Source: a virus
Lineage: Duplodnaviria > Caudoviricetes
Virus record (IMG/VR): IMGVR_UViG_3300020440_000010
Coordinates: 18,573-82,572 of that record
DNA: 64,000 nucleotides
Strand: one strand, 5' to 3'
Positions 1-28,220 of this stretch are shown in pieces; the stretch's first letter is position 1, and every line of letters starts with the position of its first letter. The notes below the pieces were generated by a model that searched no databases, was not told the DNA's origin, and worked only from the letters and a program-made list of their open reading frames with translations. Made by a program: the position numbers and the translations under genes.

Positions 1-2
1 TG

Positions 3-293
3 AATTTTGGAGATTACAAAAGCGTTCACTCACATGATAAGATTGATGCTTTTGGAATTTTCTATGTTGATGTGGGTACAGAAACATCAGGCGGACATTT
101 AAAATTATATGATCCTAGATGGCAGAATCAAAAATCATTTGTAGGATCCAAACCATACATGGAAATAGTTCCCAAGAAAGGATTGCTAATTGCCGCTCCT
201 CATTATGTTTGGCACGAAGTCACTCCGTATGTTGGGGACTTGACAAGATTAAGTTTAGTGTGTAATATGCAGTTTAACGAAATAGTAGAATGA
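3..293 (+). CDS. 2OG-Fe(II) oxygenase-like protein, 5'-truncated by window edge
   Basis: Frame open from position 3: VHSHD ... FYVDVG ... LYDPR ... PHYVWHEV ... RLSLVCN, the HxH...H...R pattern of phage DSBH oxygenases. Confidence 0.7.
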   Translation, partial: NFGDYKSVHSHDKIDAFGIFYVDVGTETSGGHLKLYDPRWQNQKSFVGSKPYMEIVPKKGLLIAAPHYVWHEVTPYVGDLTRLSLVCNMQFNEIVE

Positions 294-1291
294 TAGAACA
301 CAACATTATTACAAAAACTAACAAACGAAGTATCCTTGGCGAGATCATTGTGACTCTGTTTGAGCAGTGTAATATGAGTTGTAAATTTTGTAATCAAGAT
401 CATAACAGCAAAGTAGGAATGGATACTATCAAAGACAAGTTACCGGTAGTAAAACGTGCAATAGAAAACATGAGCAAAACTAGAGAAATGTTTAGTGTGC
501 ATTTTATGGGCGGTGAAGTGTTTAGTGATTTAGTACCTGACAGTTGTTTTGATGATTACAAATATCTAGCAGACGAACTAGAAGCATGGAGTAAAGAAAA
601 CAACTACGATGTAGAAATATGCTTTACTACAAACTTTGTATATGAACAAACACATAGACTACAAAAACTACTAGACCAATGTCCACAGGTAAAATTGTTA
701 ACCAGTTACGATCCTAGTGGACGTTTTGGCCTAGGTCAATTAAATGTATTTAAAAAGAATGTAATAGCATTTGAAAAGTATATTAAGAGTGCAAATGTAA
801 TAATGACTAAACCTAATATAGATAAGTTCTTAAAAGGCAATACACCTTTCTTTGATTATCTCTATGATAGGTATGACATTTATTTTGATTATTACACACC
901 AGAAAAGAATAGAAAGTTGATGACTCCTAATGATGTTCAATTGCGTGACTTTATGATTTATATGTTTGACAACTATCCTAACTGTTTGCCATTCAAAGAT
1001 TATCCTAGTAAAATTAAAAAACGTATGACTTGCCAAGATACATTTACAATAATGCCAAGTGGCGATGCAGGCGGCTGTACTATTTTGTTATCACAAGATT
1101 TATCAGGGTACAAACCAACCAAAGAAGAAATGGAACAAAAATGGTTTGACGATTATAATTGTTTAGAATGTCCACACTTTCAGAGATGTTCAATGGGTTG
1201 TTTTTTAAGCAATCATCTAAAAAGTTTTAGAACACAGGAAGTGTGTTGGTTATCGGAGGTTTACGATTATGTTGATTCAAAAGAAGTTTGA
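290..1291 (+). CDS. Radical SAM protein with C-terminal Cys-rich (SPASM/twitch-like) region
   Basis: CNMSCKFC (CxxxCxxC), GGE motif (FMGGEVF), C-terminal CLECPHFQRCSMGC. Confidence 0.9.
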   Translation: MIEHNIITKTNKRSILGEIIVTLFEQCNMSCKFCNQDHNSKVGMDTIKDKLPVVKRAIENMSKTREMFSVHFMGGEVFSDLVPDSCFDDYKYLADELEAWSKENNYDVEICFTTNFVYEQTHRLQKLLDQCPQVKLLTSYDPSGRFGLGQLNVFKKNVIAFEKYIKSANVIMTKPNIDKFLKGNTPFFDYLYDRYDIYFDYYTPEKNRKLMTPNDVQLRDFMIYMFDNYPNCLPFKDYPSKIKKRMTCQDTFTIMPSGDAGGCTILLSQDLSGYKPTKEEMEQKWFDDYNCLECPHFQRCSMGCFLSNHLKSFRTQEVCWLSEVYDYVDSKEV

Positions 1292-1922
1292 TGCTAATAA
1301 TTTTTACAAGCATGGTTTTGATGTTGTTGAAATGCCAAAACAATTATCTACTTTACTGTGGGCACAGATATCTTTAGAAGATTGGAACCCCCACGGAGTA
1401 TATAAAAATGTTCCGTCATGGAGCATGAATAATGATATGGTAGTGGGTAGTGTTGACAGAAAGTATGATAGAAACAAAGAACAAGAAATGTGTAAAGAAA
1501 GTTTAGATAGAGTTCCGCTTATATACAAAGATACACTTACTGCTCTTTTTAACGAAGAATATTATAGAAACTGGTTTGTAAAAACTTGTGGGTACAATTG
1601 GGAAATGCGTTTTATTGATTTATGGAATGGCAGTGACAGTTTAGACTGGCATTGGGACGGAGTAGAAGACCATGACATTGGATTTTTAATTTACTTTACA
1701 GAAGAGCCTACATGGAACGAAGAGTGGGGAAGTGTGTTGAAAGTAGGAGAAAGAGATTGGCCAGATACTAATGTACAAAATGTTAGGAAAATTATTCCTT
1801 TAAATGGAACGGTGGTATTACTAAACAACATGAATCCTAGATTTGTTCATAGTGTAGATACACTGGTTGACACAACTAAAAATAGATATACAATAAATTG
1901 TGGAATAAGTTTATGGAATTAA
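1269..1922 (+). CDS. 2OG-Fe(II) oxygenase
   Basis: WHWDG (HxD) ... FVHSV ... RYTI; paralogous to the next two oxygenases. Confidence 0.85.
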   Translation: MLIQKKFDANNFYKHGFDVVEMPKQLSTLLWAQISLEDWNPHGVYKNVPSWSMNNDMVVGSVDRKYDRNKEQEMCKESLDRVPLIYKDTLTALFNEEYYRNWFVKTCGYNWEMRFIDLWNGSDSLDWHWDGVEDHDIGFLIYFTEEPTWNEEWGSVLKVGERDWPDTNVQNVRKIIPLNGTVVLLNNMNPRFVHSVDTLVDTTKNRYTINCGISLWN

Positions 1923-2533
1923 ATGTAGATAAATTTTGGACAGACGGGTATGATGTAACTACTCTTGATGATGAAAAGTATTCAATGTTGTGGAGTTTGA
2001 TACACAATGAGACTTGGGTAGATGGTATATTTCCTATTCAAAAGGTTGCTAGTTGGAGTAATACTACAAAAGAAAATTTAAAAGATAGAGTAGAAGATAT
2101 ATCCCCTAATTTAACAATGTGGAATGTGCCTGTAGAATACGATCAAATAATGAACGATATATGGAAAAGCGATTACTATCAAAAATTCTTTAGAGACTAT
2201 GCTAAAAAAGTAGGAAAGATAGAATATATTGATGTGTGGAATAAAACACCAGCACATGAATGGCACAGTCATACTCCTGATAATGTAGATTTAGTATTGT
2301 TAGTTTATCTAAATGAACAAGAGCAATGGAAACGTGAATGGGGCGGAGTACTGCAAGTAGGTACGAAAACAATTGAAACCAACGAAGTAGGAAACGTACA
2401 TTCTATTTTGCCAAACAATAAAACAGTAGTGCTTATCAATAATATCAACCCAAGAATTTTTCATAGTGTTACAGAACAAATATCTGAAAACAATAGATAT
2501 ACAATTGGAGCAGGAATTAAGTTATGGAACTAA
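1913..2533 (+). CDS. 2OG-Fe(II) oxygenase (HxH variant)
   Basis: WHSH ... IFHSV ... RYTI; ATG at 1913 preferred over the track's TTG at 1898. Confidence 0.8.
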   Translation: MELNVDKFWTDGYDVTTLDDEKYSMLWSLIHNETWVDGIFPIQKVASWSNTTKENLKDRVEDISPNLTMWNVPVEYDQIMNDIWKSDYYQKFFRDYAKKVGKIEYIDVWNKTPAHEWHSHTPDNVDLVLLVYLNEQEQWKREWGGVLQVGTKTIETNEVGNVHSILPNNKTVVLINNINPRIFHSVTEQISENNRYTIGAGIKLWN

Positions 2534-3630
2534 TTATAAAACCCACAGAATTGTGCAACTTTAAATGTACCTTTTGTTCTAGTACAAAGATTGCAGAGCA
2601 TGGTAAAGTAGTTTTAGACCATGAACACATTTTTAGATTCTTAAAAAGATATCCTAATACAAATACAATTATTGTTAATGGTGGTGACCCGTTGATGATG
2701 GATCCTGATTACTATTGGAAAATTATAGACTATCTTGACGAACACGAGATGTCAACAAGTATTGCGTTGACTACTAACCTTTGGCCTTTTTACAAGAAGC
2801 CTAGCAAATGGAAAGCATTGTTCAACAATGAAAGGATAGGCGTTACAACCAGTTTCAATTACGGTGATGGTAGATTAAAAGGAGACTTTAGTTTATTCAC
2901 AGTAGAAGACTTTTGGCGTGTAAGTGATGCTATGTTAGAACACTGTAACTATCGACCAGACTTTATTGCAGTTGTTACAGACAGCAATGATCACCTTGCT
3001 ATGAAAAATGTAGAACTTGCTGTTGAAATGAGTGACGGCGTAGAACCCGGCGGTACATTACATAACTTTGCTCGTAACAATAAAACTGGTGTTGAATGCA
3101 AATTAAATTATGCAATGAGCAGTGGAGAACAAGATAGACCATATCTACTATCCAAGATTTACAAAACTTATGTAGATATATGGGAAGCAGGATTGGCTCC
3201 ATGGGAGTTCAATACAAAACAAATGATGAAGCGTTTGAAAGGAAACGCTACCTCTTGTCCACAGAACAGACGCTGTGACGAAGGAATTAGAAGTATGAAT
3301 CCTGGCGGAGACTATTATAGTTGTGGTGCATTTGGTGATGATATGGAGAAACCAATAGATTTTGAAAAAGAAATGAATGGGGATTTCTTTACACCATTAC
3401 AGGATAGTTTTGAACTTGCAAGTATGAAAAAATCATGTTATACTTGTCCTATGTTTGAAATATGCAATGGTTGTAGAAAAACAGTTAAGGATTTCAAAAG
3501 ACACAAAGTTGTTGAAGCACACTGTAAAATAATGAAGACTGTTGCACCCAAAATACTAAAAGCAAACGGTTTGGAGGGAGTAGAAGTTACTCCGTATGTA
3601 AATGAAACTATTGAAACAAGACAAGCCTAA
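2524..3630 (+). CDS. Radical SAM/SPASM-domain protein
   Basis: CNFKCTFC, NGGDPL, C-terminal CPQNRRC...YSCG...CYTCPMFEICNGC. Confidence 0.92.
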   Translation: MELIIKPTELCNFKCTFCSSTKIAEHGKVVLDHEHIFRFLKRYPNTNTIIVNGGDPLMMDPDYYWKIIDYLDEHEMSTSIALTTNLWPFYKKPSKWKALFNNERIGVTTSFNYGDGRLKGDFSLFTVEDFWRVSDAMLEHCNYRPDFIAVVTDSNDHLAMKNVELAVEMSDGVEPGGTLHNFARNNKTGVECKLNYAMSSGEQDRPYLLSKIYKTYVDIWEAGLAPWEFNTKQMMKRLKGNATSCPQNRRCDEGIRSMNPGGDYYSCGAFGDDMEKPIDFEKEMNGDFFTPLQDSFELASMKKSCYTCPMFEICNGCRKTVKDFKRHKVVEAHCKIMKTVAPKILKANGLEGVEVTPYVNETIETRQA

Positions 3631-4354
3631 TATTAGAAGTTATTATGGTGATGGATATGATATTGTAGATGTTGATCTAAGTGTGATTGATCATCTTGGT
3701 TCTTATATACTACAGGAAAATTTTAGTGACAGTCCTCTACATCCAGGTATATCACAACCGGATTGGGACGCAGACTATACTAATATTACCAAAGAGTTTT
3801 ATGAAGCACAACAAAAGTATATTGATATACTTAAACCTTTGGTTGAAAAAGAAAACTATTTTGATTACTGGCGTACATTACGAGGACCATTTGATGAACT
3901 TATTGTAAGCATCAACAAAATGGATAAAGGTAGTAAGATGGATTGGCATTGGGACGGTTTTGATGGTAGTATGTTACAATTGATGTTGTATGTAAACTTA
4001 GAAGAAAGAACACGAGAAGATGGAGGATTTTTAGAAGTAGGTGTATCGTATGAACCTATGATAAACCAAGATGATCCTTTCCCACACTGGTCGCCTGAAA
4101 CAGGCTTAAACAAAGTTACTGGGCACGTGATGTCTAAGTGCAGTTATGTACCTAAGAATGATAAAGCAATTATATTAAACAATGATAATCCTTTGTATGT
4201 TCATAGAGTAACAGAATGCAAAACTGACAAACCTAGGTACAGTGTATTATTACAATGCGGATATAAAACACTTTGGGACGGAAACTCACTAAAGAACAAC
4301 GGTGGACAATATAAAGATCCACGTACAGGAATGATTACAAAATTAAACCTATGA
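3602..4354 (+). CDS. 2OG-Fe(II) oxygenase
   Basis: WHWDG ... YVHRV ... RYSV. Confidence 0.85.
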   Translation: MKLLKQDKPNIRSYYGDGYDIVDVDLSVIDHLGSYILQENFSDSPLHPGISQPDWDADYTNITKEFYEAQQKYIDILKPLVEKENYFDYWRTLRGPFDELIVSINKMDKGSKMDWHWDGFDGSMLQLMLYVNLEERTREDGGFLEVGVSYEPMINQDDPFPHWSPETGLNKVTGHVMSKCSYVPKNDKAIILNNDNPLYVHRVTECKTDKPRYSVLLQCGYKTLWDGNSLKNNGGQYKDPRTGMITKLNL

Positions 4355-4911
4355 AGAACAAACAATTTTCAAATGGCAGAATTCACGGATCAAGATTTGA
4401 AGAAGCAGTATATCATGACGGATATCTTGCATTTTCTGTAAGTCCTTTTGATCAAGACTTTGAAAATGAAATAGAGGATGGTGTACTACCTCATGTGAAA
4501 GTGTTGACTACTAAAGGCTATTGTCCTATCAGCAGTTGTCATGGTCATTACGAACACGGTAAATGGATGCCTTGGTATGTGATGATAGCACTAGGGGACA
4601 ATGCCGTGAAACAAAAACAAATAATACTAGATGCAATTAAAAACATACCAGGAATATATACTGAAACAAGAAAGCAAAGTGCTAATGTTATTAATGGTAA
4701 AACTGTATTTGACAAAGTTGATCTGGATAAAGAATATGAAGAATTGAATAAAATGTTTTTACGCAAAAACACAACTTGGGAATATTTGTATATCAGTTTG
4801 TTTCAACACAGAACAATTTACAATAAAATTGCAAAACTATTATTTTTTACACACAGTAAAAATAAATTATTTTATGCTTTAGAAAGATTACCAGATGAAC
4901 ATATCAATTAA
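4351..4911 (+). CDS. Hypothetical protein (PISSCHGH motif)
   Basis: 186-aa ORF coupled to neighbours (ATGA overlap); possible metal-binding SSCxGH motif. Confidence 0.6.
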   Translation: MKNKQFSNGRIHGSRFEEAVYHDGYLAFSVSPFDQDFENEIEDGVLPHVKVLTTKGYCPISSCHGHYEHGKWMPWYVMIALGDNAVKQKQIILDAIKNIPGIYTETRKQSANVINGKTVFDKVDLDKEYEELNKMFLRKNTTWEYLYISLFQHRTIYNKIAKLLFFTHSKNKLFYALERLPDEHIN

Positions 4912-5809
4912 TCCTAGTTATTTTTGTAATTTTCGTTGTGACTTCTGTTATCTAACGCCCGAGCAACTTGCAGATCAAAAGAAAATAGATTTGCAAAGAT
5001 TAGATGATATGTTAGCAGAAGTAAAAGAACAAGATGATATTCATCATATTGATTTATATGGAGGAGAGATAGGAGCATTAAAGAAAGATTACTTCTATGG
5101 TTTACGTGATGTAATAAGAAAATACTATGACAAGGACATTAATATAAACACAAACTTTTCTATGCTACACGATGGCTTCTTTGAAAAAGACTTTTACTTG
5201 AGTGTAAGTTATGACTTTGAAGCAAGAGAGAAGCATGAATTAGTATACAAAAACATGATGTTGTCACCAGTGCCTATCGCAGTATTAGTATTGGTATCTC
5301 CAACTATTTTACAAAAAGATGTAGATGAAATGATTAGAATGTTTAACCTTTGTACTCCTGTAAAAAGTGTAGAGTTAAAACCATATAGTATTAATCAAGC
5401 CAATGCTCATAATGTAACACACAAAGACTTTGAGCAACACGTAATTAAATGGATACAATCAAAAGAAGATATGCAATTTGCATTTATAAACGATTACAAG
5501 ATACAAGACAGTATTGAAAAAACTTACAATGCATTTAGTAACGATCATGTATATATTACTCCTAATGGTAAGTTTGGAGTACTGGAGTTTGACAAAGATG
5601 ACAAAGAATATTTTTTAGAACTAGACAGTTATAAAGATTACAAACTATGGGCAGACAAAGAGCCAGACGTTAATTGTAGTGATATCTGTAAGTCATGCAA
5701 ATACTATGGACACTGCCTAACAGAACACTATAGATACGTTAAGGATCTAGACAACGGATGTAACGGATATAAAGGACTATTAGAATTTTATGAAAGACTG
5801 GAAAGTTAG
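4895..5809 (+). CDS. Radical SAM protein with C-terminal Cys cluster
   Basis: CNFRCDFC, YGGEIG, C-terminal CSDICKSCKYYGHC...GCNG. Confidence 0.9.
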   Translation: MNISINPSYFCNFRCDFCYLTPEQLADQKKIDLQRLDDMLAEVKEQDDIHHIDLYGGEIGALKKDYFYGLRDVIRKYYDKDININTNFSMLHDGFFEKDFYLSVSYDFEAREKHELVYKNMMLSPVPIAVLVLVSPTILQKDVDEMIRMFNLCTPVKSVELKPYSINQANAHNVTHKDFEQHVIKWIQSKEDMQFAFINDYKIQDSIEKTYNAFSNDHVYITPNGKFGVLEFDKDDKEYFLELDSYKDYKLWADKEPDVNCSDICKSCKYYGHCLTEHYRYVKDLDNGCNGYKGLLEFYERLES

Positions 5810-6197
5810 ACAAGAAATATATCATAGGTTGAATAGCGATCACTCTGATGATTTAAACAGAGTAGAAATACAAGAGTGTCCTGATAGTCAATTACTTGAT
5901 TACGCAATCGAATATTTTACCAACGACAAACTAGGTTGGGTCTATCCTGCTAAGAGTTATGTAGTTGGAATTTGCTATGCACTCTGGTTGACCAAAGACT
6001 TTGGAGGCGGGTTCTATGAATATCTAAATGATCCTGAATTGCTGTATGGAAATGATCCCTATTTTGTTCCTTATGACAAAGATCAACAAACGTACGATAA
6101 TATTATCAACAGTGTAGGATTTGGATTCGATCAACGTCTTGGAGTCATACCTGATATACGCCATTACTATGAAGAGGAGTTTATGCTTAATGATTGA
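5790..6197 (+). CDS. Hypothetical protein, probable partner of the upstream radical SAM
   Basis: Overlaps rSAM stop; YPAKSYVVGICYA...NDPYFVPY. Confidence 0.6.
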   Translation: MKDWKVRQEIYHRLNSDHSDDLNRVEIQECPDSQLLDYAIEYFTNDKLGWVYPAKSYVVGICYALWLTKDFGGGFYEYLNDPELLYGNDPYFVPYDKDQQTYDNIINSVGFGFDQRLGVIPDIRHYYEEEFMLND

Positions 6198-6795
6198 AAC
6201 TAAAATAAGCAGTGATGGTGCCAACGAAGTTTTTATTAAGGCATCTGATCCACAAGCACTAGAGTATAAGTCTATGGTCCTAGCAGTTTGGCCTAACACA
6301 AATTTACAAGGATTACAAATGATTAGTTTTGACAAAACAAAAAACAAAGTCAATCTAACATTTGATGTGTATCCTAGTGAAGAGATCAAAAAAGAATTTG
6401 CTGTGGCAGACTATCATCAGTTCTGTGATTACTATGCTGTCGAATGTTTTATAGATTTACAATGGCGTGTACTAAAAGTATATGATCAAAATTTACCAAT
6501 GCACCCTTTACCTAGTTTACCAAAAGGAAGTAGGATAGATGTATTGAAAAGCGGAGTAGGTGTTTATTATGGTCGCAACGTAGAAGATTATAGAAAAGTT
6601 TATTTTCTACATGACGATATTGATTATGTAAAAGAGTTTTTCAATGATCTACAGTTACCAATTATTGTAAAGAAATACAAGTATGCAATATTTGGTTTGG
6701 AGTACAATGTTAAGACAATGAAATTACATCACATTTCGTACTATGATATACAGGATAAGGATAATATATATAGTAAGGATAGTTTAAAACAATGA
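6190..6795 (+). CDS. Hypothetical protein
   Basis: ATG at 6190 overlaps the upstream TAA, suggesting translational coupling. Confidence 0.6.
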   Translation: MIETKISSDGANEVFIKASDPQALEYKSMVLAVWPNTNLQGLQMISFDKTKNKVNLTFDVYPSEEIKKEFAVADYHQFCDYYAVECFIDLQWRVLKVYDQNLPMHPLPSLPKGSRIDVLKSGVGVYYGRNVEDYRKVYFLHDDIDYVKEFFNDLQLPIIVKKYKYAIFGLEYNVKTMKLHHISYYDIQDKDNIYSKDSLKQ

Positions 6796-7367
6796 CAACA
6801 GCAAATAAAAGAATAGCAGTAGTTGGAGCACACGGAGTAGGTAAAAATACAGTCTGTATAAAATTGTTGCAAAGAGAAAAGTTTGGACAACGCGGGATCA
6901 ATGTAACATATATGCCTGAAACTGTGAGAAGCACAATGTTTATGAATCATGATATACTTGCCAATGAAATAGGCGGCGACATCAACAGTTGTGCCTGGTT
7001 GTATCATAGACACTGGAGCCAAATGCTAGAACATGAATACAGTTGCGAAGTGTTTATTACAAAAAGATTACCATTAGACTATGTTGTATTCAACGAATGT
7101 GCATACGTAATGAAGATGTGCAAAGAAACACTACCTTTTCAGTATTTAGAATTAGCAGTTGAACAAGCAAAACAGTTTCATGAAGTTTATTTTGTAAGAC
7201 ATAATCCTGATCATGATTTGATTACAGATAGCATTAGACAGGGTCCAGCGGCTAGTGAAGAACTTCAACCTTTGTGGGACACAAACTACAAAAGAATAAT
7301 AGACGAATACGAAGTTCCTGTAATTGAAGGTACAGCAGGCGAACTACTAGAAAAGATTAAAGTATGA
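6792..7367 (+). CDS. P-loop nucleotide/NMP-kinase-like protein (AAA_28/NadR-like)
   Basis: IAVVGAHGVGKNT Walker A near the N-terminus; D..R lid-like segment. Confidence 0.7.
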   Translation: MTTANKRIAVVGAHGVGKNTVCIKLLQREKFGQRGINVTYMPETVRSTMFMNHDILANEIGGDINSCAWLYHRHWSQMLEHEYSCEVFITKRLPLDYVVFNECAYVMKMCKETLPFQYLELAVEQAKQFHEVYFVRHNPDHDLITDSIRQGPAASEELQPLWDTNYKRIIDEYEVPVIEGTAGELLEKIKV

Positions 7368-8656
7368 ATATAGTTATTGTTGGAGGCGGCACTGCCGGTT
7401 GGCTCACTGCTCTTTCACTACATAAGAAACATGATGTAACCTTAATAGAAAGTGAAATACCTACAATAGGAGTAGGTGAAAGCACAACTGACACTGTCAT
7501 ACGTTGGCTAAAGCAACGTGTGGATATGAAAGAATTTCACACAAAAACAAATAGCACATTTAAATTAGGTGTGCAGTTTGATAATTGGGTAAACAAAAAT
7601 GAAACTTACTATCATTTGTTTGGTGATGTAGAAGACAAAGTACCTAATGGAAAATTTAACCAAGTGGTAAGATACTGTTTTCAGAATGGTATAAACTTAG
7701 ATAATTTAAGTATATTTGACAAATGTAAAGAAGAAGATATGACTTGGGATAGTGTTGCTACCCATTGGGACAGTGTTGCAGTACCGGCCTATCTAAGACA
7801 AAAACTAGAACACAAAATATTAATAGTAAATGATACAGTCGAAAAGGTCCATTACGAAAACGAGTCTATTACAAAACTACAATTAGTCAATAGTACTGTT
7901 GAAGCAGATTTATATATAGACTGTACAGGATTTCATAGAGTTCTAACTAAAAATACAAATAATAAATGGATTGATTGGAACGCAAAAGGTCAAGTAGATC
8001 GTGCCCTAGTATGGCAAATGCCACACAAAGATACTATACCAACTTTTACTCAAGCAGAAGCATGGGACTATGGTTGGAGATGGAAAATACCTACCACTGA
8101 TCGACTGGGAAATGGTTACGTGTTTGACAGTGACTTTATAAGTGTAGAAGATGCAGAAAAAGAAATTAGAAAAAGAGTTGATTACAAAGGTCCTGTTAGA
8201 CTTATAGAATTTAATCCCGGAAGGATTGAACAAGTATATTATAAAAATATAGTAAGTTTAGGATTAAGTTCTCATTTTCTTGAACCACTTGAAGCAACAA
8301 ACTTTGATTTTTTAGTATATAATTTACAAAACTTAGATCTTGTTATAGAAGACAAAATAAATGTAGAACAATTTAATAAAAATGCAAACAGACTTGCTGA
8401 ATCTATTAGAGAATTTGTCAAAATGCATTACATAAACAACACAAACAATACTGCATTTTGGAAAGCACAAAACAAAAATCTGTGCGGAAATGCTATTAGG
8501 GTTATTGAAAATGCAGAAACCACTAATAACCTTGCACCAGGTGGATTATTTACAGATTACAATTGGTACAAAGTTGCTCAAGGTGTTGGCATAAAGAGTA
8601 AAAGCAAAAATGATGATGCTGAATTACTAGCATTATTCCAATTAGCATCCATCTAA
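7364..8656 (+). CDS. Tryptophan-halogenase-like flavin-dependent enzyme
   Basis: GGGTAGW (GxGxxG), IGVGEST, STFKLGVQF (catalytic Lys position), YIDCTGF, WRWKIP (WxWxIP), FLEPLEAT. Confidence 0.88.
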   Translation: MNIVIVGGGTAGWLTALSLHKKHDVTLIESEIPTIGVGESTTDTVIRWLKQRVDMKEFHTKTNSTFKLGVQFDNWVNKNETYYHLFGDVEDKVPNGKFNQVVRYCFQNGINLDNLSIFDKCKEEDMTWDSVATHWDSVAVPAYLRQKLEHKILIVNDTVEKVHYENESITKLQLVNSTVEADLYIDCTGFHRVLTKNTNNKWIDWNAKGQVDRALVWQMPHKDTIPTFTQAEAWDYGWRWKIPTTDRLGNGYVFDSDFISVEDAEKEIRKRVDYKGPVRLIEFNPGRIEQVYYKNIVSLGLSSHFLEPLEATNFDFLVYNLQNLDLVIEDKINVEQFNKNANRLAESIREFVKMHYINNTNNTAFWKAQNKNLCGNAIRVIENAETTNNLAPGGLFTDYNWYKVAQGVGIKSKSKNDDAELLALFQLASI

Positions 8657-8680
8657 AACAAATACAGATTAAATATTGCT

Positions 8681-9364
8681 ATGTTTAATCCGTTCAAAAT
8701 AAATCCAAATGCAGATGTGCAAAAAATTGATTTGCCATACTTCGAAAAATACTATTGGCAAATAGATGACTTCTATACAGATCCAAAAGCAGTTAATACT
8801 TTTTTAGATACAGAGTGTGAATACAAATTATTCAAGGAAGACGAACCAGGACTAAATGGTGTTAAGTTTGAAGACAAAAGACACGAAGGACATCACAAAG
8901 GCCTAGAAGCCGTAACTTTTGCTCTAATGGAAGTTTGTAAAGCAAACAAATGTAGAGACGAAGAAGATCTAATTATTACCAATACATTCAAAGTATTAGA
9001 TCCTGATTGGGGTAAACAATATAAAGATAACTGGTGGTGGCCTCATTTAGATTGGGGTTGGACTGCATTGATATATCTCAATGAAGAACCATGTGAAGGA
9101 ACAAACTTATATCACAAACCAGGTATGCCCAAAAACGCAGTACATGATGGTATAGATAAACTTATTAGACAAGGAGCCGCAAAACATAATGAATATGTAG
9201 ATCCTTGGACTACACGGGATAATTGGATACTAGGAGCAAATATTCCTAGCAAATTTAATAGAGCAATAATATTTCCAAGTAAAATATATCACGGTATGGC
9301 TATTGAAAGTGATCGTTGGACCAACGACACACGTAGAAATCAAGTAGTATTTTTTGAATATTAA
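8681..9364 (+). CDS. 2OG-Fe(II) oxygenase-like protein (DUF6445-like)
   Basis: IDDFY.DP, PHLD...LIYLN...GTNLY...FNRAIIF...YHG. Confidence 0.7.
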   Translation: MFNPFKINPNADVQKIDLPYFEKYYWQIDDFYTDPKAVNTFLDTECEYKLFKEDEPGLNGVKFEDKRHEGHHKGLEAVTFALMEVCKANKCRDEEDLIITNTFKVLDPDWGKQYKDNWWWPHLDWGWTALIYLNEEPCEGTNLYHKPGMPKNAVHDGIDKLIRQGAAKHNEYVDPWTTRDNWILGANIPSKFNRAIIFPSKIYHGMAIESDRWTNDTRRNQVVFFEY

Positions 9365-9400
9365 AAAAGGGCGATAGTTTCCTACCGCCCAGTTTTGTTT
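9363..9400. terminator. Bidirectional intrinsic terminator between convergent genes
   Basis: A6-GGGCGATAG-tttc-CTACCGCCC-agttttgttt. Confidence 0.75.
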
Positions 9401-9404
9401 ATTA

Positions 9405-9716
9405 TTATTTTTTTGAATTGTTTATAAAGTTGTAAAACTTTTCAGCAGTTTCTAATACATCATCAACTCCAGGAATATCTGGCATACCGACTTTGTTTAC
9501 GATCTCACCAGTCTTCTCATCACGAGCGGATGTAATTTCCCAACCATTCCATTTGCTTGAATATTCAAACTCCTTGAATTGTTTTGCCATGTCTAATACA
9601 TTGGTACGGATTTCGTAACCATTTTTATTAAACTGTACTTTGGGTAGTGTTTCACGCACTGATTGTGCTAGTTGTTCGGCACCTTTTTCGATACCTTCTT
9701 TAAACGTCTTGTTCAT
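9405..9716 (-). CDS. Hypothetical protein
   Basis: 103 aa, strong SD (AAGGAG), own promoter. Confidence 0.75.
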   Translation of the reverse strand: MNKTFKEGIEKGAEQLAQSVRETLPKVQFNKNGYEIRTNVLDMAKQFKEFEYSSKWNGWEITSARDEKTGEIVNKVGMPDIPGVDDVLETAEKFYNFINNSKK

Positions 9717-9756
9717 ACTGTTTCTCCTTTGTGTGTATGTGTGTTTAAGTTATATT

Positions 9757-9785
9757 ACTATAACATTTTTATTTAGTATTGTCAA
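9757..9785 (-). promoter_or_regulatory. Sigma70-type promoter
   Basis: TTGACA-17 nt-TATAGT with extended -10 TG on the minus strand. Confidence 0.7.
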
Positions 9786-9793
9786 GAGGTGAG

Positions 9794-9815
9794 TAAAGGC
9801 TCTTTCGAGCCTTTA
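9794..9815 (-). terminator. Hairpin ending the small-protein operon
   Basis: TAAAGGCTC-GAAA-GAGCCTTTA perfect 9-bp stem. Confidence 0.65.
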
Positions 9816-9818
9816 TTC

Positions 9819-9881
9819 TTATTTGGATTTTGGTTTTGGATTAGAAAGCATTTCGTTTTCTTCATCAGTATAAGGCCACAT
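9819..9881 (-). CDS. 20-aa small ORF MWPYTDEENEMLSNPKPKSK (not in track)
   Basis: GGAGG SD; TAATG overlap with the upstream ORF stop. Confidence 0.55.
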   Translation of the reverse strand: MWPYTDEENEMLSNPKPKSK

Positions 9882-9985
9882 TAGAACATTCCTCCATATT
9901 TCATTGCGTTTAGAATTAAAACAGCAAATAAGATAGACATCATTATTGCAATTGGTAGTAAACTCTGTATAAAGGTTTTAAGCAT
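9881..9985 (-). CDS. 34-aa single-TM small protein MLKTFIQSLLPIAIMMSILFAVLILNAMKYGGMF (not in track)
   Basis: AAGG upstream; overlaps the 84-aa ORF end; hydrophobic helix. Confidence 0.55.
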   Translation of the reverse strand: MLKTFIQSLLPIAIMMSILFAVLILNAMKYGGMF

Positions 9986-10232
9986 GAGCCTTACCTTTCC
10001 AAGTTGCTACACGTTTACCTCTCATGTAATGATCTCCAGGTTCATAAGAAGCCTTTTTATCGCGGTATTTTTCTAATCTAATAATTGCCGCTTTGCGAGT
10101 GTTACTTAACTTGGCTTTCTCTAGCATTAAAACTTTTGCTTGTTCATATAAACCTTGTTGTGCTAAATTGGCCGCCGCACGAGCATAACCCATTTGTGTT
10201 AAAGTATTTTTTATTCTTTGCCATATCAACAT
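9978..10232 (-). CDS. Small basic protein (MGYARAAANLAQQG motif)
   Basis: AGGAG SD; 84 aa. Confidence 0.7.
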   Translation of the reverse strand: MLIWQRIKNTLTQMGYARAAANLAQQGLYEQAKVLMLEKAKLSNTRKAAIIRLEKYRDKKASYEPGDHYMRGKRVATWKGKAHA

Positions 10233-10244
10233 TTTATCTCTCCT

Positions 10245-10427
10245 TTATCTGTAATATGCTTGTTTCTTTTGGAAGATTCCACCACCAATGTGTGATACCT
10301 TCCCGTGTTGGAGAAGTCGTTGGCGACGCTCCAAGTCAACAAGATCAACAGACTGAGACAGCCAACGTTCTTCGGGGCTGACAGTTGATTTTGCCAAAAG
10401 TTTTTTAAAGTAATTAAGAAGTCGCAT
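10245..10427 (-). CDS. DUF3563-like small protein
   Basis: EERWLSQSVDLVDLERRQRLL resembles the DUF3563 core (YL..A.D..DLE.R.R); AGGAGG SD; TAATG coupling. Confidence 0.55.
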   Translation of the reverse strand: MRLLNYFKKLLAKSTVSPEERWLSQSVDLVDLERRQRLLQHGKVSHIGGGIFQKKQAYYR

Positions 10428-10630
10428 TATGCTACCTCCTTTGTAGGCTTTGTCCAACCATTTAACTCGCTATGAGTTGGCGCCCTACCATTGTGATCTA
10501 ACATGAATTGATAAGCATATTGCCAATCATTCTTGTATTCAGTTCTGGCCCATGTGTATAGATCGTTACGAAACCTTTTACCGGCTCCGCATTTCATCCA
10601 AGACACTAGACCACTTATTAAGTGGTTCAT
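10427..10630 (-). CDS. Hypothetical protein, first gene of the small-protein operon
   Basis: AGGAG SD directly after the structured leader. Confidence 0.7.
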   Translation of the reverse strand: MNHLISGLVSWMKCGAGKRFRNDLYTWARTEYKNDWQYAYQFMLDHNGRAPTHSELNGWTKPTKEVA

Positions 10631-10631
10631 T

Positions 10632-10838
10632 TTTTTCTCCTATGTATTGGATGCTTAAGGAAAGCAATACCCCCTGTCTTTTCAGGGCGTCAGTGGTCTT
10701 TTCCACCGTCAATGCCACTTTGGGCATCGTCAATTGCTGTTTAAGGAGTGCTCTCAACTCCCCAGTCTCTCCTGGTGTATGTGTGTGTCGTAGTTGTCAG
10801 GCCTCTACTGGAACGTAAAAGTCTTTGCACTGCAACAT
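10632..10838 (-). ncRNA. Structured ~200-nt 5' leader RNA (unassigned motif)
   Basis: Closing stems CTTAA/TTAAG and AGCAAT/ATTGCT enclose three hairpins, each preceded by TGACG; two more hairpins upstream. Confidence 0.7.
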
Positions 10839-10841
10839 TCG

Positions 10842-10882
10842 TATTTATATACTACTATAACATTTCGCCTTAAAAAGGTCAA
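10842..10882 (-). promoter_or_regulatory. Tandem early (sigma70) and late (TATAAATA) promoter
   Basis: TTGACC-17-TATAGT followed by TATAAATA on the minus strand. Confidence 0.7.
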
Positions 10883-10966
10883 GTTTTTATTTGAGAGGAT
10901 GTGTTAAATTTTTTTTACAATTATTATAAAGGAGTTTTATTTTGCGATGATAAGTTCTAAATAATT

Positions 10967-11218
10967 GTGACTATGATGGACAAAAAGAAATGGCGAGCAA
11001 CTAAACGTAAGGCTCCTAAAGTGCCTGACGATACTTGTCCAATTATTGACGGTGTGTTAGATAGACTTGATGCTATACACAAAGGAAACAAAAAGCACAC
11101 ACAATTTCAACACGATCAAATAATCAAGAAAATGGAACAGATTAGAAAAGCCAACGAACAGTTACGTGAAAGCGGACACTATTGGTATGATTTGGCAAAA
11201 AGATTCCTTAAACCTTAA
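10967..11218 (+). CDS. Hypothetical protein
   Basis: 83-aa ORF after CTAAATA. Confidence 0.6.
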   Translation: MTMMDKKKWRATKRKAPKVPDDTCPIIDGVLDRLDAIHKGNKKHTQFQHDQIIKKMEQIRKANEQLRESGHYWYDLAKRFLKP

Positions 11219-11291
11219 CGTCTTGTTCATTGTGTGTTCATCGCCAATATGCTATATACTATTATAATATTAACCTTAACTGGAGATTGCA

Positions 11292-11369
11292 ATGGCTTGG
11301 ACAAAACCAATCATTACACAAATCTGTGTTGGCTTAGAAATTAATTCTTATGCCTGTGCAGAAAAATAG
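11292..11369 (+). CDS. pqqA: PQQ precursor peptide PqqA, MAWTKPIITQICVGLEINSYACAEK (not in track)
   Basis: GGAGA SD at 11282-11286; M.W.KP N-terminus and G.E(I/V)..Y (ExxxY) core characteristic of PqqA. Confidence 0.88.
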   Translation: MAWTKPIITQICVGLEINSYACAEK

Positions 11370-11397
11370 TTGACAATTTTGTTATAGATAGTATACT
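11370..11397 (+). promoter_or_regulatory. Sigma70-type promoter
   Basis: TTGACA-16-TATACT. Confidence 0.6.
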
Positions 11398-11419
11398 AAA
11401 ATTGTAATATTATTTTAAC

Positions 11420-11450
11420 GGAGCCAACCTTAGGGAAGGCTCCTTTTTTT
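11420..11450 (+). terminator. Intrinsic terminator downstream of pqqA
   Basis: GGAGCC-aaccttagggaa-GGCTCC-T7. Confidence 0.75.
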
Positions 11451-11465
11451 ATGAAAGGAGTTGTT

Positions 11466-11666
11466 ATGCATAGTACAAAACAATCAATGGACTGGCATAT
11501 ACAAGAAGTTTTAACCTGTGAACTGTTACGAGTAGATCCTAATAATGAAATGCTTGAAAAGTTTTTGGGTATGCAAAATCATTTTGGTGCAGAAATGCGT
11601 AAAATAAAAAAGTTTTATGAAGAACAAGGTAAATGGCCGCCTAGAGAGCCTGGGAGTTTATGCTAA
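11466..11666 (+). CDS. Hypothetical protein
   Basis: AAGGAG SD before ATG 11466. Confidence 0.65.
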   Translation: MHSTKQSMDWHIQEVLTCELLRVDPNNEMLEKFLGMQNHFGAEMRKIKKFYEEQGKWPPREPGSLC

Positions 11667-11854
11667 TGAAAACTTATACTTTAGAATTTGTGTTGTTTGG
11701 CTGGTTGGCTTATAACATAGCAATAGAAATAGTAAGTTGGTTTGAGCCAGAAGATGAACTACAAGCACCTACGCCTGTGGAAATGTCTCCTGCACAGCAA
11801 ATACTAGAAGGTGGTACTGACTATCCTATTACTGAGGAAAACTCCACAAGTTAA
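11660..11854 (+). CDS. Small membrane protein
   Basis: N-terminal hydrophobic segment. Confidence 0.55.
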   Translation: MLMKTYTLEFVLFGWLAYNIAIEIVSWFEPEDELQAPTPVEMSPAQQILEGGTDYPITEENSTS

Positions 11855-12654
11855 ATCTGTGGAGTTTCTAAACCGTCAACTAACTTTTTGATGTGTGTCA
11901 CATAGTCACCTATGTTATGATCAGTAAAGTTATCTATCTTACCTTTTTTCAACCCACGCCACATACCACGGAATCTGTCTTTGATTCTTTGGTATCCGGT
12001 TGGATTACGTTTGTTACCCCAAGTATTTAGATAATGTTCTGTGCCGTGATGTCGATATCCCATTATCCATAACGGCACTCTACATACTATATCATTATTG
12101 TTTACCCATCTGTGATGTGTGATACCAAGGCTACTTACATATCCTGGCCAACCCACTCTTGGCGAGCCATATGTGTAAAGTTCCTTAGGATCTAGTGTAT
12201 CTAAATGTAACAAACATCTCGAAGCCATTATAGTTGCCATTGCCGCTCCTAATGAGTGTCCACAAAACCAAAGGTCTTTTTTAGCATTTACAGATCTAAA
12301 TAAATCTTCAGTGATTGATGGCCAAAGTTCATCTACTTCTGTTTTAAATCCTGCATGGACTCTGCTTACAGTCTCAGCAATTACAGGCAGTGCATTTGCA
12401 TCTGCTTGAATGTCATTGTATTCTGTTGGTTGTGTTCCTCTACAAGCAATTACTATATCATTTTTGTTCATGAATCTGTAACTCTGAGCACCTTTGTTAT
12501 CGTAATACTCAACTGTGGTAAAGCCTAACAGTCTTGCTTGTTTGTGTGCTTTATCCTCTTTTAGGTATGATATCATACTCAATTCAGCAAAAAGCAAACT
12601 TCTTTCTTCGAAAGATAGTTCTACTATTGGTTTTTTTAACTTTGCACTATACAT
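11851..12654 (-). CDS. Lipase class 3 family alpha/beta hydrolase
   Basis: CGHSLGAAMA (GxSxG), YTYGSPRVG, RWVNNNDIVCRVP, C-terminal DH. Confidence 0.88.
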   Translation of the reverse strand: MYSAKLKKPIVELSFEERSLLFAELSMISYLKEDKAHKQARLLGFTTVEYYDNKGAQSYRFMNKNDIVIACRGTQPTEYNDIQADANALPVIAETVSRVHAGFKTEVDELWPSITEDLFRSVNAKKDLWFCGHSLGAAMATIMASRCLLHLDTLDPKELYTYGSPRVGWPGYVSSLGITHHRWVNNNDIVCRVPLWIMGYRHHGTEHYLNTWGNKRNPTGYQRIKDRFRGMWRGLKKGKIDNFTDHNIGDYVTHIKKLVDGLETPQI

Positions 12655-12720
12655 TGTACCTCCGCGTTCTCTTTACAATATTTACCTGCTATTTCTAATA
12701 AATATTAGAGAGGTAGTTAG

Positions 12721-12981
12721 ATGAAACGCACAACACGAAGTATATTACAAGAATTACATGATATTCAGGCCAAACCCGAGCCTGAAAATGTGGTTGACAG
12801 CAGAGCAGTTCATGTTATAGAATCAGCAATAAATGTTATTGCTATGATGCATGAAAACTTTGATAATGCTACTGCTAATGATTTGGAGAAGAGATTCATC
12901 AACAGTATAAAAAGTGGTGATCCACAGAAATTTGCTCGTGGCATTAAAAATATAAAAAAGGGCAAACCAGATGCAATTTAA
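12721..12981 (+). CDS. Hypothetical late protein
   Basis: ATAAATA at 12698 and GAGG SD. Confidence 0.7.
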   Translation: MKRTTRSILQELHDIQAKPEPENVVDSRAVHVIESAINVIAMMHENFDNATANDLEKRFINSIKSGDPQKFARGIKNIKKGKPDAI

Positions 12982-14197
12982 AGAACTAATAGCAGAAGAA
13001 GCCAAACAAAATAAACACCTAGAACACATCGAAGAAGAAATTCTCAATAGAGGATCTGCCGGTGCTGAAGATACAATGAATACTTTGATGCGTTTTTCAG
13101 ATATGCTAAAAGGTAGATCCAATAAAAAATTAAAAGTTACAGTTAAATGGGACGGTGCACCTGCAATAGTGTGTGGTACTGATCCGCAAACAAAAAAATT
13201 TTTCGTAAGCACAAAAGGAGCATTTGCTAACAAACCTAAATTAGCATTTACACAAGAAGATATAGAAAGTATCTTTCCAGACTACCTATGGGATAAATTA
13301 GGTCCATGTTTAGAACACTTATCTAAGTTAGGCATCAAAGGCGTTGTACAAGGCGATCTTATGTTTAATGAAGAAATGAAAAAAGAAACAGAAATAGATG
13401 GCAAACAGTACGTGGTATTCAAACCACAAAAAATTACATACGCATTTCCAATAGACAGTGAAGTAGGCAGACGTATAGTCAACGCAAAGTTAGGAATTAT
13501 TTTTCATACAAATTATACAGGCGATGCTATGAATGACATGGAGGCAGATTTTAACGTAGATGTTTCAGGTTTTAAAAACAACAAAGATGTTTGGTTTGAC
13601 GATGCAACATTTAAAGATGTGACTGGCAGTGTCTTACTTACAAAAAGTGAACAAGTTCAAGTGAAACAAGATTTGGCTGACGCAATGGCGGCCTATAAGG
13701 CTGTACCAAGCGACTTATTAGAAGCAGTAAAAAACAATAAAGATTTCGTGGTGTACTGGAAACGTACAGTTAACGATTATGTAAGGGCAAACAAACTACC
13801 TGGGGATCCTGATCAGTTCTTAAACGATTTCATCGATGTGTATAAGAATGTTATTCAGAAAGGAATTGCTGGATTAAAAAATCAGGATCCTGCCGCCCCT
13901 GCTGTAAAATCTAGAATGGACAAACTTGAAACACAAGTAAACCTAGTCAACGCAAATAGAAAAGGCCTAGCAAACATTATTAGATTTATGAAAGAAGTTT
14001 CTAATATTAAGTTGATGTTTATTAGAAAACTTAATAATATTGAAAGTGTAGCACAGTTCTACCAAGAGCCAGATGGATCATATACTGCGGCTAATCCAGA
14101 AGGATATGTTGCTGTTGATCATATAGGAAATGCTGTTAAATTTGTAGATAGATTAGAATTTAGCAGACGTAACTTTGGTGAAAAGGACTTTGGCTAA
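12971..14197 (+). CDS. DUF6267-like protein with ligase-type nucleotidyltransferase motifs
   Basis: KHLEHIEE, TVKWDGAP (KxDG), VQGDLM, PEGYV, KFVDR; conserved family in large marine T4-like phages. Confidence 0.65.
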   Translation: MQFKELIAEEAKQNKHLEHIEEEILNRGSAGAEDTMNTLMRFSDMLKGRSNKKLKVTVKWDGAPAIVCGTDPQTKKFFVSTKGAFANKPKLAFTQEDIESIFPDYLWDKLGPCLEHLSKLGIKGVVQGDLMFNEEMKKETEIDGKQYVVFKPQKITYAFPIDSEVGRRIVNAKLGIIFHTNYTGDAMNDMEADFNVDVSGFKNNKDVWFDDATFKDVTGSVLLTKSEQVQVKQDLADAMAAYKAVPSDLLEAVKNNKDFVVYWKRTVNDYVRANKLPGDPDQFLNDFIDVYKNVIQKGIAGLKNQDPAAPAVKSRMDKLETQVNLVNANRKGLANIIRFMKEVSNIKLMFIRKLNNIESVAQFYQEPDGSYTAANPEGYVAVDHIGNAVKFVDRLEFSRRNFGEKDFG

Positions 14198-17879: not shown

Positions 17880-19358
17880 ATGAAAACAACAGATTTTTTA
17901 AAAGAAGTTACAGTAGAGGATCTTAACAAGAAATTGTACAAAGAACACAATACTACTGTAGATCTTGCCAAATACAGCAAGGAACAACTAGAAGCATACA
18001 GCAAACGTATTGATGCTAAACTAACACAATTCGAAACTTCATCTAAGTTCAATGACAGTTTAACAAACGAGTCATATCAAAAGATGCAACTTATCAAGCA
18101 ACTTGTAGAAACTGCTATCAACCAATATATTGAAAATCCCCTAGAAGCAGTTGACGAAGAAGACTTGGGTGATGATGTATTAGAAGTAGAAGCAACTGAT
18201 CAAGATGTTGCATCAGACTTCGCAGAAGACGAAAAAGAAGAAGAACCTAAAGACGACGATGAAGAAGACGAAGACAAAAGTCCTAATAATGTTTCTTCAA
18301 TGGCTATTGCGGCACTAAGACAAATGTTAGATGATCCAAGCAAACTAGGATTGGCACGTAGAGCATTAATGAAAATTACTGATCATGAAAAATTAAACAC
18401 AATTACTCCACAAGAGTTAGATGCTATTCGTGGTCCATTAGAAAAATTCTTTGTACCTATTTTAGATAAAGGTATGCAAGGTATAACAAGAACAAAACCT
18501 GTGCTAAAAACTTTAGGTGGCGGTGAGTCAGTTGAAGAAGGTGCATACGAAGGTTATCACAAAATGCCTTTGAAAGCAGATGTAATGAAATGCATCAAAG
18601 ATGGTATGTCAGAAGCACAAGTTTGTGAAAAATATAAAAAATGCAATCCAAAGGAAATGAAACTTATGGCATCATCATGCATGAAAGAATACAAAAGCAA
18701 AAACGAATCAATCATACGTGAAGGTAAAATGCCATCTAAAGCACACGTTAAGAAAATGTGTAAGGATGGAAAGTCTGAAGCAGAAATGTTAAAAATGCAC
18801 CCAGATGCAGATAAAGGTAAATTAAAGGCAATGATCAAAGATTGCAAAAAAGAACTTAAAGAATCAATCATTAATGAAGGCGAAGAAGACAAAGCGGCAT
18901 TGGTAATGGCGGCCAAGGATATGGTAGATAGATTTACTTCATTCTTAGAAGACGTTGCTGAAATGAGTGCTGAAGGAATGCTTGAACTACAAGATCAAAT
19001 TAGAGAAGAACTAGGACAAGAACAAGCAGAACAGTTTGTTAATACAGTAGGGCCTGCACTTGAAGGTACTATAGAAAATTTAAAACAATCACGTGAAGCA
19101 CTTAATGGTGGTGTTGGTATTATTACTGGCGAAGGTGCACCCACAGATACAATTGGCGCTGAGGAACCTGCTCCTGAAGTAGATCCAGAAGCACCTGCTG
19201 AAGAGCCAATGGATGCTCCTGCAGATGACGAATTTGGTGCCAGCGACCCGGCAATGGGTGGAGACGAACCAATGGGCAGAGAAAAGCGTGAAAGTTATAC
19301 TCCAAACAAAAAAACTGTTACTGAGTCAGCAAGAATTTTCAGCACATTAAGTAAGTAA
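17880..19358 (+). CDS. Acidic coiled-coil protein, possible prohead core/scaffold
   Basis: Very E/D-rich, several (I/L)xE sites, Pro/Ala/Glu tail, internal duplicated module. Confidence 0.5.
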   Translation: MKTTDFLKEVTVEDLNKKLYKEHNTTVDLAKYSKEQLEAYSKRIDAKLTQFETSSKFNDSLTNESYQKMQLIKQLVETAINQYIENPLEAVDEEDLGDDVLEVEATDQDVASDFAEDEKEEEPKDDDEEDEDKSPNNVSSMAIAALRQMLDDPSKLGLARRALMKITDHEKLNTITPQELDAIRGPLEKFFVPILDKGMQGITRTKPVLKTLGGGESVEEGAYEGYHKMPLKADVMKCIKDGMSEAQVCEKYKKCNPKEMKLMASSCMKEYKSKNESIIREGKMPSKAHVKKMCKDGKSEAEMLKMHPDADKGKLKAMIKDCKKELKESIINEGEEDKAALVMAAKDMVDRFTSFLEDVAEMSAEGMLELQDQIREELGQEQAEQFVNTVGPALEGTIENLKQSREALNGGVGIITGEGAPTDTIGAEEPAPEVDPEAPAEEPMDAPADDEFGASDPAMGGDEPMGREKRESYTPNKKTVTESARIFSTLSK

Positions 19359-27806: not shown

Positions 27807-27881
27807 AACCCTCCTTGGTTTGTTTTGGCTAATTTTTTAGACTTTAGTTATCATTTAAATTAAAAAACACGCACTTTATGA

Positions 27882-27912
27882 TTGACATCCAAAACAAATG
27901 GTGCTATAAATA
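27882..27912 (+). promoter_or_regulatory. Composite early/late promoter of tmRNA
   Basis: TTGACA-17-TATAAA, where the -10 also reads TATAAATA. Confidence 0.7.
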
Positions 27913-27916
27913 TAAG

Positions 27917-28220
27917 TGTAATTGTTGACAGCATCGTATGTCACAAGAGCAGGACCCCGGGGCGGTACCGGGCAGGTCCACCATAAACACATTGTTTTTT
28001 ATGGTTAGTAGTGTGTTTATGATGGGCCTGAAATAGGATCGACTGGCTTGTTAAGGGTGAAAGAGATTACCGGTAAGGTACGACCGAGCATTATATGGGG
28101 AGACTCATGCTACTGTCCAAAAACCATAAATGCAAACGATAATTTTGCATCTGAAGAGTTACGTCTAGCGGCGTAGTTCTACGGGGTTGGCAACTTACCT
28201 GGCAACAGAAAAGTTGCACT
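27917..28220 (+). ncRNA. ssrA: Circularly permuted (two-piece) tmRNA, alphaproteobacterial type
   Basis: Acceptor piece: T-arm CCCGG-GGCGGTA-CCGGG, CAGGTCC-A-CCA ending at 27983. Intervening hairpin. Coding piece starts GGGCCTGAAATAGGATCGAC at 28024 (G3.U70 pair). Outer ends approximate. Confidence 0.93.
28132..28176 (+). other. tmRNA tag reading frame (A)ANDNFASEELRLAA*
   Basis: GCA resume codon, ANDN start, LAA-stop ClpX degron. Confidence 0.9.

Follow-up and report, generated by a model that had tools for sequence, protein, structure and literature searches.

Does a 25-codon open reading frame (ORF) in a large marine tailed phage encode PqqA, the precursor peptide of the PQQ cofactor, and which enzymes would use the peptide? 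In PQQ synthesis, PqqD binds the leader of PqqA, PqqE cross-links a Glu and a Tyr of the peptide, and PqqB and PqqC finish the cofactor. One PqqA peptide is consumed per PQQ molecule, and PQQ is a stable, reusable cofactor. Canonical PqqA (e.g. of Klebsiella or Methylorubrum) is small and combines a W-x-K-P leader with an E-x3-Y core, and the phage peptide has the same features. Canonical pqqA is the first gene of a pqqABCDE operon in a cellular genome, whereas the phage pqqA is neither in an operon of this kind nor in a cellular genome.

The analysed stretch of 64,000 nucleotides (the window) corresponds to bases 18573-82572 of the 82,572-bp IMG/VR virus record IMGVR_UViG_3300020440_000010, which is ~30% complete according to CheckV. 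A preliminary description, made from the letters of the window, proposed that the ORF encodes PqqA and feeds the PQQ pathway of the host.

Identification of the pqqA gene

The features at and around the ORF are as follows.

11241-11268 (+): promoter-like sequence TCGCCA-16 nt-TATAAT, ending 24 nt before the pqqA ATG (consensus scan, 10/12)
11282-11286 (+): Shine-Dalgarno sequence GGAGA, 5 nt before the ATG (read from the sequence)
11292-11369 (+): pqqA, 25 codons and stop, translation MAWTKPIITQICVGLEINSYACAEK (PF08042 and TIGR02107)
11370-11397 (+): near-consensus promoter-like sequence TTGACA-16-TATACT, overlapping the A/U-rich hairpin (scan, 11/12)
11373-11405 (+): A/U-rich hairpin directly after the pqqA stop (fold)
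11420-11450 (+): intrinsic-terminator-like hairpin GGAGCC...GGCUCC with U7, just before the next gene (fold)
11466-11666 (+): gene of a conserved 66-aa protein family, MQSTKQ.MDWHIQEVL..E.LRLDP.N...NHHGA

The Shine-Dalgarno sequence and the 25 codons are located exactly as the preliminary description had them. No other coding sequence is apparent between ORFs 10967-11218 and 11451/11466-11666, where only short chance ORFs overlap the 25 codons. The peptide has the leader residues W3, K5 and P6 and the cross-linking pair E16 and Y20, and its length of 25 aa is within the ~20-40 of PqqA. PF08042 matches the peptide with 30.3 bits (gathering cutoff 21.1; model positions 1-19 of 19), and the NCBIfam model TIGR02107 matches it with 37 bits (cutoff 20; model positions 1-21 of 21). 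In the six-frame HMM search of the whole record, a single PqqA match was detected (34.9 bits, E = 2.1e-9). The pattern M-x-W-x-K-P-x7-G-x-E-x3-Y is found once in the window and in none of 100 shuffles. The proposed identity, which had been read from the M.W.KP start and the ExxxY core, is thus borne out: the residues are present and both curated models score above their cutoffs, including TIGR02107, which had been suggested as the check.

No pqqB, pqqC, pqqD or pqqE was found in the whole 82.6-kb record, in agreement with the earlier observation for the window, and xoxF or another viral methanol dehydrogenase gene was also absent from the record. As the record is ~30% complete, the part of the genome outside it could in principle contain pqqB-E.

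Genomic setting of pqqA

Viral genes are located on both sides of pqqA, including those of the virion protein phrog_11854, DUF6267, tail proteins and ribonucleotide reductase (RNR), tRNA genes and a tmRNA gene. The record encodes tail-spike and tail-fibre-like proteins, virion proteins, RNR, an exonuclease and DUF6267. The RNA genes are as follows.

27878-28220 (+): alphaproteobacteria-type permuted tmRNA (RF01849, 125 bits; tag ANDNFASEELRLAA)
46698, 55564, 58229, 58885 and 59429 (+): five tRNA genes, Arg-GCG, Arg-TCT, Leu-TAA, Trp-CCA and Ile-TAT

The DUF6267 gene is common to the Kyanoviridae myoviruses Melnitz and HTVC008M and to many cyanophages, with ~37% identity. In the megablast search of window 9000-14000, no match to cultured phages was obtained, and the structural protein 17880-19358 had no match among them. 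Judging from these searches, there is no close cultured relative of the window phage. Syntenic relatives of ~81 kb are rated just 21-22% complete, and therefore the window phage group is probably jumbo-sized.

Window 290-9364 (+) is tightly packed with genes of three radical SAM enzymes (one with a weak SPASM domain), several 2OG-Fe(II) oxygenases, DUF6445 and a flavin monooxygenase/halogenase-like protein (phrog_2928; weak N-terminal QhpG/LodB-like matches). It looks like a tailoring cluster. A class 3 lipase (PF01764, 70 bits) is encoded at window 11851-12654 (-), two genes downstream of pqqA. The relative L068 has a version with 82% identity, and the contig G001:C5 described below one with 55%. 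This lipase is an unusual cargo gene for a phage.

Distribution and conservation of viral pqqA

IMG/VR was searched with a degenerate DNA pattern for M-x-W-x-K-P-x7-G-x-E-x3-Y. The in-frame pattern gave at least 120 viral loci, each of which, among those listed, encodes a clean PqqA of 24-25 residues. A GGAG-type Shine-Dalgarno sequence precedes nearly all of these copies. As a control, the same pattern shifted by 1 nt gave two loci, one unrelated and one with an M-A-W-x-K-P start followed by stop codons. The peptides are divided into two classes. Class A peptides (25 aa, ...VGLEINSYACAEK) are alphaproteobacterial-looking, and the window peptide belongs to them. Class B peptides (24 aa, ...RFGFEVTMY...) are gamma/beta-like in look and account for 81 of the first 120 viral loci listed. 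A scan specific for class A raised the total of distinct class A viral loci to at least 129, those listed having 29-40% GC. Neither pqqB-E nor xoxF was present in the at least 120 viral pqqA loci listed or in the at least 129 class A loci listed; in contrast, 88 of 120 cellular loci with the same pattern show pqqB-E in the fetched flank.

The gene order of the window is found at seven loci: pqqA, the 66-aa gene, a 64-aa gene, the gene of an 86-aa virion protein, DUF6267 and structural genes. The flanking proteins of these loci are 26-82% identical to those of the window. In order to avoid the bias of the pattern, 65 loci were collected via the neighbouring 66-aa gene and were scanned with an HMM built from cellular peptides only. 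In this set, pqqA was detected in 15 of the 16 close relatives with enough upstream sequence, and 37 loci had a PqqA match. Glu16 and Tyr20 are kept in all 37, and no broken copy was found among them. One of the 15 relatives (L374) has a W-N-T-P variant, which is outside the DNA patterns used. The dN/dS ratio is ~0.08 (0.07-0.09) overall and 0.013 for V13-Y20, and the sets derived from the pattern gave 0.07 and 0.19. The synonymous differences are near saturation (pS ~0.6), and each core residue uses two to four different codons. According to the conserved positions, the dN/dS values and the intact Glu16 and Tyr20, the gene is real and is maintained by selection in phages. Conservation in relatives had been named beforehand as a test of the gene, and the outcome is positive, with the same position in seven relatives, presence in 15 of 16 evaluable ones and dN/dS of 0.07-0.09. 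In the sequence available, pqqA is absent from the close relative L378 and from the 46.7-kb relative G001:C5, which indicates that it is dispensable in some lineages.

The 66-aa protein has no relative in Pfam, PHROG or PDB, and just two near-identical relatives were found in the databases. Its gene directly follows pqqA in the window and in seven of the first 39 class A loci listed, and lies ~530 nt downstream of pqqA in a second phage group. Ten further loci with this direct succession came from the set collected via the 66-aa gene, where it is the next gene after pqqA in 17 of the 37 loci with a PqqA match. Among the fetched viral pqqA loci, it occurs in class A only, at varying distances and in 16 of the at least 129 listed. 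We examined the idea that the protein is a hidden PqqD-like chaperone; an obligate partnership with PqqA was rejected on the basis of the missing domain relationship, the two database relatives and this small share of the class A loci.

Signals around pqqA

The TATA-rich part of the candidate promoter at 11241-11268 is partly conserved in syntenic relatives. The phage pqqA is expressed-looking.

Two hairpins follow the stop codon, and together they have a folding energy of -22.4 kcal/mol (z = -3.6 against shuffles). The A/U-rich hairpin at 11373-11405 is conserved in nine syntenic sequences, with two pairs changed on both sides. The second hairpin (11420-11443), followed by U7 at 11444-11450, corresponds to the terminator that had been described after the ORF; it was not listed by the simple terminator scan, because its loop is longer than 8 nt. 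Its stem is identical in the window and seven relatives, L375 and L381 having one loop substitution each. The relative L376, on the same contig as L119, has a different GC hairpin with a T-run at this position. The promoter-like site in this region, TTGACA-16/17-TATA[CT]T, is strictly conserved directly 3' of the pqqA stop and directly 5' of the terminator hairpin. The site and then the hairpin lie ~20 nt ahead of the next gene, and a promoter running straight into a terminator is an odd arrangement. The element directly after the pqqA stop could act as an RNA structure or as a promoter, the covariation being weak. The whole of 11370-11450 might stabilise the 3' end as a hairpin, might be a tiny RNA or might work as an attenuator.

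At other loci, a GC-rich motif, TGTGGACCGCGGTCA..AGACAACCGGCAC, is located 31-36 nt before the W codon of pqqA (L010, L024, L029, L068, L077, L105 and L119), and a variant of it is present in L034, L069 and L115. The motif was found in two phage groups and is absent from the window and from the host loci. An apparent compensatory change in it (CCG..CGG to TCG..CGA) suggests a stem.

The likely host

The class A core was scanned across 185,579 species genomes, and many alphaproteobacteria were matched. The closest cellular PqqA peptides share 19-20 of 23 residues, counted from W3, with the phage peptide, and have the same length and the same ACAEK end. They are encoded by marine alphaproteobacteria with genomes of 1.2-2 Mb and 26-36% GC, and no other cellular match exceeds 17 of 23 residues. 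A full-scoring PqqC was detected in 16 of 21 of the closest marine genomes. In one of them (G014), pqqA is followed by the genes of PqqB, C, D and E beside xoxF, xoxG and xoxJ (a XoxF-type dehydrogenase, a methanol-related cytochrome c and a MoxJ-like protein), and all score above the NCBIfam cutoffs. The preliminary description had made the pqqBCDE genes of the predicted host a point to be checked; in the lineage with the closest PqqA peptides, the putative host, they are present (16/21 for pqqC; the operon of G014), together with the PQQ-dependent XoxF.

The lineage name of two host-like genomes, MED657 and TMED13, was taken from the literature. Both are placed in TMED127/Methylaequorales, TMED13 being a genus of that order (Glass et al. 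2025, PMC12542740), and MED657 is one of the "Clade X" MAGs (PMC11996626). The members have small genomes and are probably obligate methylotrophs, with xoxF5 accounting for 16-57% of transcripts (PMC12542740). This uncultured order was seen only in 2025 to be behind the most highly transcribed methanol dehydrogenase genes of the open ocean (PMC12542740).

The TMED127 genomes examined (G001, G010, G012 and G017; loci L252-L263) have one to four pqqA copies each. Some copies form pairs on opposite strands, with ~850 bp between the two (G010:C5, L139). The spare copies stand alone in the chromosome, on long contigs where no neighbouring gene is phage-like. L130 (NZMJ01000006.1, 'Maricaulis sp.' MAG IN14) departs from this; it is a 36%-GC contig with a class A pqqA. 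Its flanks match the viral loci L004, L070, L081 and L102, so the contig probably comes from a phage and was placed in this larger MAG (about 4.1 Mb) by mis-binning. TMED127 has pqqBCDE and xoxF next to one of its copies, whereas the phage pqqA is among phage genes and adjoins none of pqqB, C, D and E. Operon context is typical of PqqA and is not a strict requirement, since TMED127 genomes also hold stand-alone copies. The chromosomal peptides have the same length and the same ACAEK C-terminus as the phage peptide and 19-20 of 23 residues in common with it. The phage PqqA differs from them at I7, T9, Q10 and C12, and many synonymous sites differ too. A TMED127-type chromosomal pqqA is presumably the source of the phage gene.

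The phage tmRNA is of the alphaproteobacterial type and is divergent from the genuine TMED127 tmRNAs (~205 bits, tag ANDNEMALAA). Its 3' part matches the tmRNA of the related phage contig G001:C5 (46,675 bp; L364-L366) exactly over 36 nt. This contig is binned in MED657 and is syntenic with the window end to end (35 protein matches, 33-79% identity). A second phage-like contig binned there, G001:C3 (14,835 bp; L367), likewise keeps the gene order of the window and has 12 protein matches of 33-79% identity. pqqA was not found in either contig. G001:C5 was considered as a prophage; it is phage-like end to end with no host flank, and was therefore taken as a co-binned contig only. Its co-binning in MED657 is weak evidence of the host, and not evidence of integration. 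According to the similarity of the 23-residue peptide, the alpha-type tmRNA and the co-binned relative, the host most likely belongs to TMED127/Methylaequorales.

Role of the phage peptide

From the sequence comparisons above, we consider it probable that the orphan pqqA of this large marine tailed phage feeds precursor to the PQQ pathway of its host, most likely a member of TMED127/Methylaequorales. The lanthanide methanol dehydrogenase XoxF5, the dominant enzyme of the host, would receive PQQ made by PqqB-E. By its W-x-K-P leader and Glu-x3-Tyr core, the phage peptide would be bound by the host PqqD and cross-linked by the host PqqE, and PqqB and PqqC would finish the cofactor. The PQQ supply, and hence the energy derived from methanol, would be sustained or raised during infection. 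XoxF (and glucose dehydrogenase) would thereby be kept supplied in an oligotroph that grows slowly and in which the infection is long. The peptide most likely serves as additional substrate of the host pathway, because all features of PqqA are kept and the peptide is near-identical to those of the host spare copies. As PQQ is stable and reusable, it is not obvious that the precursor supply is limiting within one infection cycle.

Enzymes of the phage itself might take the place of the host pathway. Radical_SAM domains are present in ORFs 2524-3630 and 4895-5809 (weak in 290-1291), so that radical SAM domains and several 2OG oxygenases are located 2-11 kb upstream of pqqA, and PqqE itself is an rSAM/SPASM enzyme. 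The tailoring enzymes of window 1-9364 could then act on the PqqA-like peptide and yield PQQ, or a different product, without the host PqqB-E. However, the matches to peptide maturases are generic (18-43 bits against cutoffs of 300-700) and do not include PqqE, a PqqD/RRE domain was not detected, and genes on the opposite strand lie between the cluster and pqqA. Moreover, homologues of window ORFs 1-9364 are present in no class A pqqA locus examined, and the rSAM ORF has no homologue in the pqqA-bearing relatives, which are 80.7, 81.8 and 45.8 kb long. By the profile scores and the relatives, the radical SAM cluster is neither PqqE-like nor travelling with pqqA. Processing by the phage enzymes is thus very unlikely, and its consequence, a virus-encoded non-canonical route to PQQ or a new quinone/RiPP product, is a shade less likely again. 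Another view is that pqqA came from host contamination or a recent passive pick-up, or is a remnant in decay that does nothing for the phage. In favour of this, the gene is tiny, resembles that of the host and is missing from some relatives; nevertheless, phage genes flank it on both sides, divergent relatives have it at the same position, and none of the 37 loci with a match holds a broken copy. In addition, the peptide is conserved while its synonymous sites are near saturation, and many synonymous differences separate it from the host copies. The selection and synteny data largely refute this view, and we give it almost no credence.

The peptide might instead act against the host pathway, binding PqqD/PqqE unproductively as a decoy or inhibitor and stopping PQQ synthesis, e.g. 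for redirecting resources. An orphan precursor encoded without its enzymes could in principle titrate the chaperone, and the W-x-K-P leader is conserved. A decoy, however, does not need both Glu16 and Tyr20, and these two residues, like the entire V13-Y20 core, never vary among the copies that were collected without requiring them. The near-identity of the host spare copies points to the same use in phage and host, and the loss of the main energy enzyme of the host would be costly for the phage. Inhibition is therefore improbable, though it is the least improbable of the alternatives considered here. Finally, pqqA might be a regulatory leader peptide or have another role outside PQQ synthesis, e.g. 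controlling the 66-aa gene via the hairpin and the terminator. The conserved hairpin and terminator between the two genes are consistent with such control, and so is the direct succession of the two genes in the window and in part of the class A loci. Attenuation leaders, on the other hand, are not so constrained as this peptide, which is conserved as PqqA and matches the host PqqA, and the 66-aa gene accompanies only 16 of the at least 129 class A pqqA loci at varying distances. A role of this kind is highly improbable. The supply of precursor to the host PqqB-E is accordingly the reading that we prefer.

Comparison with known phages and significance

A virus-encoded PqqA was described in the Lake Baikal methylotroph phages (VP_266), and the same auxiliary role was proposed (Coutinho et al. 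2020, Microbiome 8:163, PMC7678222). In VP_266, the PqqA gene on a viral contig was read as aiding PQQ-dependent methanol oxidation, as it is here. The Coutinho phages are from freshwater with predicted methylotroph hosts, whereas the window phage is marine, has the alpha-type 25-aa peptide and likely infects TMED127. Viral pqqA has thus been known since 2020, and the mechanism is not new. The alpha-type viral PqqA and the likely TMED127 host are the new points. In the literature searched, no phage was described for TMED127, and Glass et al. 2025 (PMC12542740) do not mention phage. One listed paper that touches on both subjects names TMED127 a single time, where genome recovery is discussed.

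Among cultured phages, Melnitz (MZ577097.1) has an unannotated orphan pqqA at 76140-76196, which scores above the TIGR02107 cutoff. pqqA is absent from the SAR11 phage HTVC008M and the Prochlorococcus phage P-TIM40. This distribution among cultured relatives, in which pqqA follows the host, is a further hint at the host of the window phage. Melnitz is a marine T4-like (Kyanoviridae) phage of a streamlined methylotroph, and has the DUF6267 gene in common with the window (~37%). Its host is OM43 (Methylophilales) and its record is 141.5 kb, whereas the window phage likely has an alphaproteobacterial host, is much more divergent and is probably far larger. A tblastn search of the peptide against cultured phages gave no match; the same search missed the Melnitz pqqA found by HMM, so it is uninformative.

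Genes of 25 codons are missed by standard annotation, and pqqA is another case. The alpha-type orphan pqqA, present in at least 129 marine viral contigs, is a marker for candidate phages of TMED127, some of which are apparently jumbo-sized. The one to four pqqA copies per host genome, together with the phage copy, hint that the supply of precursor peptide limits PQQ-dependent methanol oxidation in the host as well as in the course of infection.
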